Below, piece by piece: positions 4,608 through 9,668 of a stretch of DNA of 13,828 nucleotides. Every line of letters begins with the position of its first letter. Positions within the stretch are counted from its first letter, which is position 1. The notes under the pieces were generated by a model. It saw nothing but the letters and a program-made list of their open reading frames with translations. It was not told where the DNA came from and made no database searches. Source of the stretch: Candidatus Jordarchaeales archaeon (lineage in GTDB: Archaea > Asgardarchaeota > Jordiarchaeia > Jordiarchaeales > Freyrarchaeaceae); the NCBI GenBank assembly GCA_038858525.1, contig JAWCFL010000025.1:1-13828 (forward strand), written 5' to 3'. The position numbers and the translations under genes were made by a program.

Positions 4608-4781
4608 AATGTCTCCCTCGACTCCTACCAGAGAACAGAGTCACAAAAATATAAGGGTTACGAAGCGCGAGGAACTAAAAGCCTCTCACGCTACCTTGAC
4701 AAAAATCAAAACGAATAAAAACAACAGATAATTAGATTCTAGTGTTGCGTTTCTCTTTTAAAGGCCAAAGGGGGCTCTCCT

Positions 4782-5147
4782 ATCCCGGCTGGCGTTATAA
4801 TAATCGGTTGGAGTAAGAAGCTTGGCGCAATGGCTGAAGCTTCTTTCCCCGAAAACTTAAAACTCCCACCAGATTTTGTAACGCAGGTATTCTCAGCGCA
4901 TTTTGAAGGAGACCTAAGCAACTTCACTCCAATGGTTACACTTCAAGTATCTGGCCGGAAAGTTGTCAGCTACCTCACAGATGACGGCGAGAAGAAAAGG
5001 TGCTTTGCCCTCATACTCCACAAAGAGGAAAAGACAAGCGAATGGATTGAACCCCTCAAAAAGCTGGCATCAGAAGTCATGGAAAAAGATGATTTAAAAG
5101 GAATTTCATCCCTTTACAAAAAATTCATTTTCGAAAAAAGAATTTAA
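4782..5147 (+). CDS. Small longin-fold-like protein of the type common in Asgard archaea; start uncertain
   Basis: The frame is open from 4743. Extending the track ORF upstream gives (I)PAGVIIIGWSKKLGAMAEASFPENLKLPPDFVTQVFSAHF, with a strand/helix pattern b-b-a-b-b-b-a-a typical of longins. The first ATG is at 4830, and no GTG/TTG lies upstream in frame. The fold call is pattern recognition only. Confidence 0.5.
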   Translation: MPAGVIIIGWSKKLGAMAEASFPENLKLPPDFVTQVFSAHFEGDLSNFTPMVTLQVSGRKVVSYLTDDGEKKRCFALILHKEEKTSEWIEPLKKLASEVMEKDDLKGISSLYKKFIFEKRI

Positions 5148-6011: not shown

Positions 6012-6755
6012 ATGATGGCTGCCAGAAAATATCATCTTGCCGTGGGAGTTCTGGTTTTCGTGGCGTTCGCCATAGCCTTCTACAAGTGGTACTTGGGAAC
6101 TTGGACTATAACCGAAGTGAATGGAAACATTTTCTCGACGCCACGCTCCTTCTCATCAAGGGATGTGGTTTGGTTAACTATCTCTTTCTTCCTCTCTCTA
6201 ACTGGGTCAGAGATCGCGGATTTCGACCACGCGATAACGTGGATGAACCACCGTGACTGGTTAACACACTCAGCAATAATACCTTCAATACCCGCTGTCG
6301 TAGTTCTAGCTGCAACTTTCAGTAGCACGTTCATGCAGGAAGCGCGTTTAGCCCTCTCCCTACTACTGGCAATGGTCCCCCTAGTGCTCGCAGCTGCATC
6401 CCACCTTCTAATTGACCTCTTCCCAAGCGTGCCTATCGAGGAGCTCAGCAAAAAAGGAAAGTACGTAGAACTGGCTGTACGTATGGCTGACAGCGCCATT
6501 AGAGGTATGATCTTGACAGAGTTCGGCAAGAGAATGTCTGGAAGCTACCTGATACATTTCTGGTGGAATATTAAAAAAGAAAAGGGAAAAGAAAGGCGCA
6601 CTTTAAGCGAGAAGAAAACAAAAACTTGGCTTGTGATTAACGGCGTTGTACTAATCGGAGTAGCCTTAGCTCTCCTAGCAAGATACCTTATGCTCGAACT
6701 GTCTTTTCCCATTACCCAACTAGTGTCTATCGTACTAGGCTTTATTACTGGCTGA
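6012..6755 (+). CDS. Membrane-bound metal-dependent hydrolase, YdjM-like
   Basis: Several hydrophobic segments plus the motifs ADFDH, HRDWLTHS and SHLLID; SD AGGAG. Confidence 0.65.
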   Translation: MMAARKYHLAVGVLVFVAFAIAFYKWYLGTWTITEVNGNIFSTPRSFSSRDVVWLTISFFLSLTGSEIADFDHAITWMNHRDWLTHSAIIPSIPAVVVLAATFSSTFMQEARLALSLLLAMVPLVLAAASHLLIDLFPSVPIEELSKKGKYVELAVRMADSAIRGMILTEFGKRMSGSYLIHFWWNIKKEKGKERRTLSEKKTKTWLVINGVVLIGVALALLARYLMLELSFPITQLVSIVLGFITG

Positions 6756-7692
6756 TCTTCTCTCCGCAATTGGGACAAAACTTAGCGTTGGATGGTACCG
6801 GTGAGCCACATTGAGGACAGAATCCCCCTCCACCCGCCATTTTTTGTCCACAGTTACTGCAAAACCGTGCGCCTTGAGAGTTCTGAGCCCCGCATTTCGG
6901 ACAAATAACCACGTTTTGAGGAGTCTGAGTTTGCTGGAGAAGGGGAGGCAAAATAGCTATTCCAGCACCAAAAGCCGCTCCTGAAGACTTACCGAGTGAT
7001 TCCGCCGCCCTCTCAACTGCCTCCAGCGTCCTGGCGCGTTCTCCCGTAACTCTTCCTGTCTGAAGCCAGAAAAGCCTCTCCCTGTACTCCGGCGTCGTAT
7101 CCATTCCCTCGAATTTAAGGTCGACGAGGTCCAGCCCAATTCTCCTAAATGCTTCCCTGATCTTAACCTTAACTTTCATGCTTGTCTCATCTAGTTGCGT
7201 GAAGACCTCCTGTAGTCTAAACGACGCTAGGGCATCTATCATATTCTCCAGTATAAATCCTCTCACAAACTGGTTTACCGCGTCCGTCGTGAACGAATGG
7301 GTGTTTCCAACCACTTCCATAACAAAGATCTTCGGCTCCTCAACCTTGAACCAGAATGTGCCATGAAACTTGAGAGGCGCCAGATCAACAGTTTGACCTT
7401 GCCCTCCAAACTTGCCTTGAAACTGTGATGTTGAAACGAACATTATCTCGGCGGCGAAAGCCGACTTGTCCAGCAATTGAAGACGCCTTATAACACCAGT
7501 GAGCAACGGAAGATTAGCTGTTGTTAAATGATGCCTACCTGGGCCAAATACATCATAAGCCTTACCATCTCTGAAAAATACTGCCACCTGATTCTCTCTA
7601 ACTATGAGGTTCGAGCCCCACTCGATCCTGTCATCATGGTACCTCCAAACTATTTCTTCCCGTCCGCCTTTCCACTCTATAACCTTAGGCAT
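6745..7692 (-). CDS. SPFH/Band-7 domain protein with C-terminal zinc ribbons (YdjI/COG4260-like)
   Basis: LIVRENQVAVFFRDGK, FGPGRHHLTTANLPLL and AEIMFVS N-terminus; four CxxC pairs (CPKC/CSNC/CPQC/CPNC) at the C-terminus. Confidence 0.9.
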   Translation of the reverse strand: MPKVIEWKGGREEIVWRYHDDRIEWGSNLIVRENQVAVFFRDGKAYDVFGPGRHHLTTANLPLLTGVIRRLQLLDKSAFAAEIMFVSTSQFQGKFGGQGQTVDLAPLKFHGTFWFKVEEPKIFVMEVVGNTHSFTTDAVNQFVRGFILENMIDALASFRLQEVFTQLDETSMKVKVKIREAFRRIGLDLVDLKFEGMDTTPEYRERLFWLQTGRVTGERARTLEAVERAAESLGKSSGAAFGAGIAILPPLLQQTQTPQNVVICPKCGAQNSQGARFCSNCGQKMAGGGGFCPQCGSPVPSNAKFCPNCGEKISQ

Positions 7693-7702
7693 ACTACCAC
7701 CC

Positions 7703-8298
7703 TCATCTAAACTCTAACATATACTCCTTTCTCTCATTAAACTTTTTATCAATATCATCTAGAACCCGCCTTAACCTGAACACGTCCTGATAAACATCCT
7801 TCAAATTGCCCTTCTCCATTCTCTCCTTAAGCTCAAGTATCCCTCTGCGAAACGCCTCAACATCCTCAAGTATCCCCATATCAAACTCGTAAAGCCTATC
7901 AAGCTCTTTTTCCCTAACCTTTACGGCATCAAAAAATCCAGAGTAACCATAGTCCGCATGATTTATCCTCTCAGAAACTCTGTCAAGCAACGCCATAAGC
8001 CTGTCCATCTGCTCCCAGCTTTCACGAAGATCATAGTCGACAAGCATCTCCTGGATCAAGCTCAAATCAGACTTACACTCCTTCATCCTCGTATAAATGA
8101 AACCTCTAAGAGCCTTATCCGTCTCCCTTCTAATCTCCTTAGCCTTGTATCCATGTTGGCCAGCCCGGCAAAAGCTCAGAGCTTATAGCCAGGAACAAGG
8201 TACATCAACTTTTCCAACAAGTTCCTCTTGCTCTGAAAGGAAACCTCTCTCTTAATCTTACCCCCAACATCCTCATTTTCCTTCTTCCACAAAGACAA
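7703..8298 (-). CDS. Intron-split conserved helical hypothetical protein: join(8298-8185, 8155-7703), 188 aa after splicing
   Basis: SD GGAGGTGA (8310-8303), then TTG 8298. Exon 1 is MSLWKKENEDVGGKIKREVSFQSKRNLLEKLMYLVPGY (38 codons). Exon 2 continues HGYKAKEIRRETDKALRGFIYTR into the 127-aa track ORF, which contains ADYGYSGFFD. The stop lies 10 nt before the SPFH start. Confidence 0.85.
8156..8184 (-). other. Candidate 29-nt BHB-type mRNA intron
   Basis: Sequence AAGCUCUGAGCUUUUGCCGGGCUGGCCAA. Central helix GGCU/GGCC, bulges AUA and AAC, intron helix AGCUC/GGGCU, and about 10 bp of exon-exon pairing. The cuts predicted by the BHB rule restore the frame. Confidence 0.85.
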
Positions 8299-8340
8299 AG
8301 AGTCACCTCCAAGATTGACACTAAAAATTAATGCAAAACA

Positions 8341-8385: not shown

Positions 8386-8477
8386 GGGCGGGTAGTCTAG
8401 CGGTCATGACGCCACACCAAAACTGGGCGACGCTTACGACGTGGAGGACCCAGGTTCAAATCCTGGCCCGCCCACCA
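8386..8477 (+). tRNA. tRNA-Val(UAC) with encoded CCA and a 16-nt non-canonical intron
   Basis: Acceptor GGGCGGG/CCCGCCC-A-CCA; D arm GTCT...TGAC; T arm CCAGG-TTCAAAT-CCTGG. Removing 16 nt gives anticodon arm CCACG-CTTACGA-CGTGG with anticodon TAC. Confidence 0.95.
8416..8431 (+). other. tRNA intron at position 30/31 with a relaxed BHB motif
   Basis: Intron ACCAAAACTGGGCGAC. Central helix CGCC (8410-8413)/GGCG (8426-8429), bulges ACA and ACG. The flanking helices are weak. Confidence 0.85.
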
Positions 8478-8933: not shown

Positions 8934-9668
8934 TCACGCTTCACTGAATAATTTCTTTAACCTCTCTAACTCAGCGAGCATAGCACTTCTTAACTCAGTG
9001 ATCGATGACGTTTCAGAGGAAAATGCAACTCCAGGAGCAGATGCGGAAACTGCCGCCGCTGGCGGTGCTGCTGGCAGTGCCCTTGCCGCTGGAGGTGCTG
9101 CTGGAGGTGCTGCTGGAGGTGCTGCTGGAGGCGCTGCTGGGGGTGCCCTTGCCGCTGGAGGTGCTGCTGGAGGTGCTGCTGGAGGTGCTGCTGGAGGCGC
9201 TGCTGGAGGCGCTGCTGGAGGCGCTGCTGGGGGTGCCCTTGCCGCTGGAGGCGCTGCTGGAGGCGCCGCTGGAGGCGCCGCTGGGGGTGCCCTTGCCGCT
9301 GGAGGCGCCGCTGGGGGTGCCCTTGCCGCTGGAGGCGCCGCTGGAGGCGCTGTTGGAGGCGCCCTTGCCTCTATTGATAATGGCGTTTCAGTTCGGGATG
9401 CGCCTATGAATACATCGAATACCTCTTCTGGCTCTTTTTGGGCGAGTGCTTCTATTTCTGGTGCTGATATTACTATTTCTTCTTCCTCTATTAGTGGTAC
9501 TTCAGCGCTTTTAGCTAGTTTTTCTACTTCTTTTTGTATCTTCTTAATTGAAGTGATGTATGAGTCGTGTATTTTCTGGAAATTGGCGAAGTACTTCTCC
9601 GATGTGCTTACAAGTGATTTGCACAGGTTTAGTACGGCTTTAAGGACTTTTTCTTCTTTTTTAGGCAA
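8934..9668 (-). CDS. Hypothetical protein: helical N-terminus, acidic linker, long (APPA)n Pro/Ala tract, C-terminal amphipathic helix ending LKKLF
   Basis: TTG start with SD GAGGGG. Non-repetitive ends read as real protein, with C-terminus ITELRSAMLAELERLKKLFSEA. Confidence 0.8.
   Translation of the reverse strand: MPKKEEKVLKAVLNLCKSLVSTSEKYFANFQKIHDSYITSIKKIQKEVEKLAKSAEVPLIEEEEIVISAPEIEALAQKEPEEVFDVFIGASRTETPLSIEARAPPTAPPAAPPAARAPPAAPPAARAPPAAPPAAPPAAPPAARAPPAAPPAAPPAAPPAAPPAAPPAAPPAARAPPAAPPAAPPAAPPAAPPAARALPAAPPAAAVSASAPGVAFSSETSSITELRSAMLAELERLKKLFSEA
9052..9369 (-). repeat. Intragenic GC-rich tandem repeat: 12-nt units (PPAA) interspersed with 18-nt units (PPAARA)
   Basis: About 22 PP doublets; exact 60-nt duplication 9081-9140 = 9147-9206. 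Confidence 0.95.

Follow-up and report, generated by a model that had tools for sequence, protein, structure and literature searches.

Endonuclease-dependent splicing of protein-coding transcripts in archaea is known from the cbf5 pre-mRNA intron of Crenarchaeota, including Aeropyrum, Sulfolobus and Desulfurococcales (Watanabe 2002; Yoshinari 2006; Yokobori 2009 = PMC2738675). For more than 20 years, cbf5 has been the sole archaeal protein gene with such confirmed processing, splicing having been confirmed for no other archaeal gene (PMC2738675), and our literature search, which covered sources outside subscription journals, found no later report of a confirmed non-cbf5 archaeal mRNA intron. 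The splicing endonuclease EndA cuts between the second and third residues of each bulge of a BHB motif, and its hetero-oligomeric form has been linked to cbf5 mRNA splicing (PMC2738675); the Asgard enzyme is reported to be of the broad-specificity (alpha-beta)2 type (PMC5829648). Non-canonical tRNA introns (BHB/HBh') are very abundant in Freyarchaeia and Atabeyarchaeia (PMC11291895; bioRxiv 10.64898/2026.10.13.758758). The consulted sections of the papers on Freyarchaeia, Atabeyarchaeia and Asgard tRNA introns give 92-95% of tRNA genes as intron-bearing, and describe tRNA introns only. HAC1/XBP1 splicing, a further point of comparison, is named in PMC13149111.

We analysed a 13,828-nt stretch of DNA (hereafter the window) from a member of the Jordarchaeia, an affiliation that agrees with the Asgard origin proposed in an earlier interpretation of the letters alone (the sequence-only reading). 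A conserved gene in the window is very probably interrupted after codon 38 by a 29-nt archaeal BHB intron that would be spliced by EndA and RtcB (Table 1). Support for splicing comes from the junction, the covariation of the RNA structure, selection on the exons, the presence of the enzymes and one RNA contig.

Table 1. Coordinates of the split gene, its predicted intron structure, neighbouring features and further interrupted genes (window positions unless the genome, G000, is named; the caret marks the splice point)
Feature	Position	Strand	Remarks
Split gene	8298..7703	-	Codes for a conserved 188-aa protein once the 29-nt insert is removed
Shine-Dalgarno-like element GGAGGTGA	8303..8310	-	4 nt 5' of the TTG start; read from the sequence
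Exon 1	8185..8298	-	TTG start at 8298-8296; 38 codons; ends ...LVPGY; conserved in frame in relatives
Exon 2	7703..8155	-	150 codons plus stop (7703-7705); begins HGYKAKEIRRE...
Predicted BHB intron, phase 0	8184..8156	-	29 nt, a length indivisible by 3; its third codon is an in-frame UGA
Outer (exon) helix, 5' strand	8191..8200	-	Imperfect pairing with 8143-8154
Central helix, 5' strand GGCU, exonic	8187..8190	-	Pairs with 8158-8161
Bulge 1, AU^A	8184..8186	-	Predicted 5' splice site after U8185
Inner (intron) helix, 5' strand AGCUC	8179..8183	-	Pairs with 8162-8166
Inner (intron) helix, 3' strand GGGCU	8162..8166	-	Pairs with 8179-8183
Central helix, 3' strand GGCC, intronic	8158..8161	-	Pairs with 8187-8190
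Bulge 2, AA^C	8155..8157	-	Predicted 3' splice site after A8156
Outer (exon) helix, 3' strand	8143..8154	-	Imperfect pairing with 8191-8200
Downstream gene	6745..7692	-	SPFH/Band-7 domain and double zinc ribbon (Pfam); starts 10 nt past the split-gene stop
tRNA-Val(UAC), divergently placed	8386..8474	+	16-nt non-canonical intron 8416-8431, position 30/31
EF2 interruption	G000 C4:81118-81146	+	
aIF2-gamma interruptions	G000 C1 ~191090-191200	-	
aIF5B interruption	G000 C1 ~147520-147550	+	

The reading frames show how the gene is divided. In the unspliced RNA, the 5' frame forms a 40-codon ORF ending ...LVPGYKL-stop (UGA), and the frame of exon 2, which differs from that of exon 1, is open from just inside the insert; the sequence-only reading had placed a UGA stop in the unspliced insert and the downstream part in another frame, and the RNA does read Y-K-L-stop at this point. 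When the insert was removed, the 188-aa protein it had described was obtained. The number of start codons between the nearest upstream stop of the exon 2 frame and the junction is zero, so the first 23 codons of exon 2, which lie 5' of the sole internal ATG (8086), can be translated only after removal of the insert, yet they are highly conserved. Purifying selection acts on both exons: among intron-bearing species (pS 0.3-0.8), exon 1 has a pN/pS of 0.19-0.55 and exon 2 one of 0.13-0.28.

These results bear on the idea that the locus is a pseudogene, or else two genes encoding a 40-aa peptide and a 127-aa protein translated from the internal ATG. Public annotation is compatible with that idea, in that intron-bearing orthologues are deposited as ORFs of 111-131 aa, which is also the truncation that the sequence-only reading had expected from annotation pipelines. 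However, 38 codons of exon 1 and 23 codons after the junction are conserved in frame, the most conserved motif of the family included, pN/pS lies well below 1, and the interruption persists across two families with compensatory changes, unlike a decaying frameshift. We therefore consider a pseudogene or a pair of genes extremely improbable. An annotated example is the complete Freyarchaeota genome CP147778 (L010/L038, ~2,434,700), where the orthologue with a 31-nt intron appears as the 112-aa hypothetical protein WED07_11495, corresponding to exon 2 from an internal Met.

The encoded protein belongs to an uncharacterised, all-helical family of 175-190 aa. The Pfam search of the protein returned no family, and the sole NCBIfam match was NF047596, which was weak (48.6 bits vs a cut-off of 210). 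AlphaFold2 modelled the 188-aa protein as a helical bundle (pLDDT 79), for which a structure search of the PDB gave no match at E <= 0.001; the neighbours in the AlphaFold DB were mostly unnamed or uncharacterised, the few named ones being zinc-ribbon, DUF47, DUF4178 and PhoU proteins. The split gene lies directly upstream of the gene for the SPFH/Band-7 and double zinc ribbon protein in all members of the order, as well as at four loci from other Asgard families (L013, L015, L016 and L017), and the two form an operon in which the split gene comes first. The GGAGGTGA element also precedes the start codon in a relative of the same genus (L003).

The boundaries of the insert could be placed to the nucleotide. 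Exon 1 ends with T8185, the insert runs from A8184 to A8156 and exon 2 starts with C8155; because the letters at both flanks differ, the boundaries are fixed and cannot slide, in agreement with the unambiguous junction claimed earlier. The BHB geometry is present, with the 4-bp helix GGCU/GGCC between the opposite 3-nt bulges AUA and AAC. The flanking helices fit the relaxed form, the inner one having 5 bp and the outer one being broken by two 1-nt bulges: a single U-A pair adjoins bulge 2, and stretches of 3 bp and then 6 bp follow, each after a 1-nt bulge. For a 71-nt RNA around the insert, the minimum-free-energy fold (-25.0 kcal/mol, 30% of the ensemble) contained the helices and bulge 1 of the BHB fold put forward by the sequence-only reading, but its central helix had 5 bp and its second bulge 4 nt, in preference to 4 bp, 3 nt and an isolated U-A pair; the proposed form of bulge 2 was thus not reproduced, and the BHB is accordingly of the relaxed kind (HBh'). 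Compared to shuffled sequences, the fold energy gave z = -2.1, with 7 of 200 shuffles as stable, and the structure by itself is only modestly unusual.

Several other interpretations of the insert were rejected. The palindrome AGCUC-U-GAGCU, considered as a competing fold, has a 1-nt loop and is absent from both the lowest-energy and the centroid folds. A group I or group II intron would have a catalytic core of hundreds of nucleotides vs the 29 nt found here, and the Rfam scan of the window found tRNA only. As for a repeated or mobile element, the only matches that blastn-short returned from the genome were chance ones of 10-14 nt.

A six-frame search of 41 related genomes located the gene in 25 of them. 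Cutting after the second nucleotide of each bulge produces the junction PGY^HGY, and the orthologues of four Freyarchaeota species (sister family, L005-L008) and one metagenome contig (L026) contain an uninterrupted LVPGYHGYKAKEIRRE that equals the predicted spliced junction exactly. The intron-less orthologues thus match the earlier claim that removal of exactly 8184-8156 yields PGY^HGY. In a 31-sequence family alignment that spans to Odinarchaeia, Korarchaeota, Nitrososphaeria and some bacteria, 0 members had a gap at the junction, as the sequence-only reading had anticipated for homologues; G39 and Y40 are invariant, and the junction lies inside the most conserved motif of the family.

At exactly the site of this junction, every gene-bearing genome of the window's family (4 of 4) carries an insert, with lengths of 27, 28, 28 and 29 nt. 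Inserts of 31 nt occupy the site in two of the six species of the sister genus (Freyarchaeota), and inserts of 27-31 nt do so in all but one of the 8 metagenome contigs that were found; the standard cut rule restored the reading frame in every case. The intron is probably ancestral to the order, comprising the Jordarchaeum and Freyarchaeum lineages, and was probably lost precisely in one Freyarchaeota subclade; the protein tree did not resolve the order of intron-bearing vs intron-less Freyarchaeota (gain vs loss).

To describe the conservation of the RNA structure, we compared 11 distinct intron-bearing sequences, namely the window and ten others from Jordarchaeia and Freyarchaeia, six being metagenome contigs. 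The central helix was paired in 100% of cells, the inner helix in 98%, four of its 5 pairs having changed on both sides, and the outer helix (helix 1) in 83%, with one G-C to A-U double change coupling exon 1 to exon 2 (columns 7/58). Across the whole BHB model, 90% of cells paired, compared to 31-44% when the 3' partners were slid by 1-3 columns, and the covariation score was 0.355 vs 0.214 in shuffles (reached by 0 of 500 shuffles), although all of these pairing and covariation figures lean toward the BHB model because the 11 sequences share ancestry and one of them served to derive the model. The inner helix reads AGCUC/GGGCU in the Jordarchaeum type vs GAGCAG/CUGCUC in the Freyarchaeum type; such a full replacement between families with pairing kept is hard to account for otherwise. 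For introns of the Freyarchaeota type, the lowest-energy fold adopted a competing register of 8 bp instead of the canonical BHB, so the enzyme would have to choose the BHB form. Given the modest fold score and a genome scan without excess (see below), the weight of the evidence comes from the relatives and from RNA, not from the motif.

The locus was contained in 18 public sequencing runs, of which four (X1, X7, X13 and X16) were compared with the window at contig level; X16 contributed no aligned contig. All of the DNA runs with the gene (12/12, from 6 studies) contained words overlapping the insert, and the DNA contigs of two hot-spring runs, X1 (one possible source) and X7 (a hot-spring metagenome of 2017 that belongs to another study), crossed the insert site ungapped. 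The insert is present in independent DNA runs and is therefore genomic, which settles a check suggested by the sequence-only reading. A second suggested check concerned spliced RNA. In metatranscriptome X13, one assembled 414-nt contig spanning 7843-8285 lacked exactly 29 nt (8156-8184) and showed 6 differences from the window. This contig represents a slightly different strain and a sample other than those of the DNA runs, is assembled rather than raw reads, and stems from a library in which DNA may be present; it hints strongly at splicing but is not proof. With an 89-nt query in which every word overlaps the insert, no RNA run was found among the runs listed, a result that carries no weight either way. 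A tRNA-like X13 contig was also considered as evidence of tRNA splicing and was discarded, its unlike flanks and small indels pointing to a different locus.

The X13 contig might instead derive from an intron-less allele of a close strain, either as DNA carry-over or as mRNA, in which case the insert-bearing gene could be inactive here. The 6 differences over 414 positions, the fact that RNA libraries can contain DNA and the precise intron loss in one Freyarchaeota subclade are in keeping with such an allele. Nevertheless, the insert is kept in 4 of 4 gene-bearing genomes of the window's family and in 3 further metagenome contigs of that family, all far more diverged than X13, and in every DNA run with the organism (12/12). 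Moreover, in a search of 5.8 billion proteins the Jordarchaeum-type matches were all truncated ORFs, with zero full-length proteins. An intron-less allele is unlikely on account of these more diverged relatives and of the protein search, and, wherever the X13 contig came from, exon selection together with helix covariation requires that some working mechanism remove the insert. We judge this explanation to be improbable, if less so than the others considered here.

A different possibility is that no RNA is spliced, the ribosome bypassing or hopping over the 29 nt, or shifting frame, to make the full protein from unspliced mRNA. The insert bears a superficial likeness to a bypass site, as its start is closely followed by a stop codon and it includes a hairpin. 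However, the contig from the RNA library physically lacks the 29 nt, the conserved and covarying features are those of a BHB (the 4-bp helix and two 3-nt bulges), the take-off and landing codons are unmatched (UAU vs CAU), and the neighbouring tRNA, in which translation plays no part, shows this geometry too. Bypassing or frameshifting is hence scarcely credible as an account of this locus.

The splicing reading is consistent with the enzymes encoded in the genome, which contains one EndA with the catalytic Y/H/K residues, a second EndA-fold subunit with the His missing, and an RtcB (601 bits). The two EndA subunit genes lie in the regions G000 C3:81835-82089 and C43:5978-6235. From their sequences, the two EndA-fold genes would fit an (alpha-beta)2 enzyme and the link between EndA and cbf5 splicing; EndA and RtcB are presumably the acting enzymes, and splicing would be efficient or constitutive. 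In the proposed mechanism, exonic GGCU of the pre-mRNA would pair with intronic GGCC to form the 4-bp central helix, flanked by the bulges AUA and AAC, the inner 5-bp intron helix and the imperfect exon-exon outer helix. The two-subunit host EndA would cut after the second nucleotide of each bulge, and RtcB would ligate the exons. The mature mRNA, reading ...PGY^HGYKAKE..., would give the full protein, and unspliced RNA would give a 40-residue peptide only.

The neighbouring tRNA-Val, located 88 nt upstream of the split gene, has an intron of the same design (CGCC-AC^A ... GGCG-AC^G), with the order of elements and the cut position as in the split gene and almost without flanking helices. ARAGORN called this gene as tRNA-Phe(aaa), an artefact that arose because the intron was read as the anticodon loop.

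The sequence-only reading had framed the intron as a lone oddity, a view that did not hold, as at least four other genes (cbf5, ppsA, EF2 and aIF2-gamma) carry the same kind of intron. These were found and verified by a Pfam-family search of the genome. In ppsA, PPDK_N is split over two frames by a 20-nt BHB intron (G000 C1:42657-42676, +) with textbook helices (outer CGGCA/UGCCG, central GAGG/CCUC, inner GAGAC/GUCUC), and splicing restores the conserved AED^LPGASFAGQQDT motif. In cbf5 (TruB_N), a 30-nt BHB intron (G000 C1:177182-177211, +) with a 10-bp inner helix was located, whose removal restores the catalytic GTL^DP. Among the large translational GTPases, 3 of 4 are interrupted in G-domain motifs: EF2 by a 29-nt intron whose removal restores DTPGHV^DF, and aIF2-gamma by a 30-nt intron whose removal restores GHVDHG, with a probable second intron of ~31 nt; the 29-nt intron of aIF5B, with one A.G mismatch in the central helix, is likewise probable. 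The GTPase introns are placed in the most conserved motifs of their genes.

The sequence-only reading had also advised a genome scan for BHB-interrupted genes, and in its motif-based form this was less productive. We scanned the genome for sites with a central helix of 4 bp, bulges of 3 nt, no fewer than 3-5 bp in the inner helix and no fewer than 2-3 bp in the outer one, and with ORF continuity after mock splicing. Among 42,260 motif candidates, frame-restoring cases were no commoner than in controls whose 3' site had been moved by 1-2 nt, whatever the stringency or intron length. The scan is uninformative, since gene boundaries and chance open frames dominate it and the intron of the split gene itself does not pass the strict outer-helix rule. 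A BHB motif alone proves nothing, because motifs that keep an ORF are as frequent in frame-shifted controls.

Elsewhere in the window, a longin-like ORF (4767-5147, +) has a conserved-looking N-terminal extension (GVIIIGW...) with no upstream ATG, GTG or TTG, and a quick search for an upstream BHB exon gave no convincing candidate. The 244-aa ORF at 8934-9668 (-) contains a tract of ~110 residues of the APPAAPPAA type, flanked by a helical N-terminus and a short C-terminal helix, and is without a match in Pfam; base composition accounts for the open frame on the other strand along the repeat.

It is somewhat probable that the tRNA-splicing endonuclease/RtcB pathway serves as a general mRNA-splicing machine in Jordarchaeia and Freyarchaeia, with many protein genes affected. 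If so, EF2, aIF2-gamma, aIF5B, cbf5 and ppsA would be inexpressible until mini-introns of 14-31 nt are removed from their most conserved motifs, obligatory splicing of protein-coding transcripts would be pervasive in these archaea, for the first time in any known prokaryote, and splicing could act as a regulatory gate, here on the SPFH operon. Gene callers truncate or split such genes, and as a consequence the proteomes, metabolic reconstructions and completeness estimates of these Asgard lineages are systematically wrong at such sites. The new elements here are a host gene unrelated to cbf5 in the archaeal lineage closest to eukaryotes, the phylogenetic covariation of the RNA structure and a first RNA-level hint of intron removal; of wider interest, the intron is one of a set in essential genes of the same genome. 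Interrupted protein genes may thus be tolerable on a wide scale with tRNA-splicing enzymes alone, which bears on the tolerance of intron-bearing protein genes before any spliceosome.

Among known systems, phage T4 gene 60 is translated by bypassing, in which the RNA stays whole and the take-off and landing codons must match. The split gene resembles it in having a short untranslated gap in the coding sequence beside a stop codon and a hairpin, but here the gap is absent from an RNA-derived contig and the two codons are unlike. In the HAC1/XBP1 system of eukaryotes, IRE1 recognises stem-loops in the mRNA and RtcB or tRNA ligase joins the exons in a stress-regulated manner. The likeness to it lies in a protein endonuclease acting on an mRNA structure, a tRNA-type ligase and a short intron whose removal changes the frame and the protein; as IRE1 and its twin 7-nt loop motif are unrelated, this is a likeness of working, not membership. 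With the non-canonical tRNA introns of archaea, the locus shares the RNA motif, the size range (16-31 nt), the cut rule and the presumed enzymes, whereas its substrate is an mRNA, removal restores a reading frame instead of a tRNA fold, and the recognition helix is partly built from coding sequence. The crenarchaeal cbf5 intron is similar in being a short intron within a gene that encodes a protein, with (relaxed) BHB bounds, in its predicted cleavage between the second and third bulge residues, in the hetero-oligomeric EndA of the host, in its patchy distribution with precise loss in some lineages, and in being seen by gene callers as a frameshift or a truncated gene. Unlike crenarchaeal cbf5, the host gene here encodes an uncharacterised helical protein upstream of an SPFH gene, the phylum is Asgard (Jordarchaeia/Freyarchaeia), and several mRNA introns, that of cbf5 included, occur in one genome. 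By mechanism, the intron of the split gene is a new member of the cbf5-type class.
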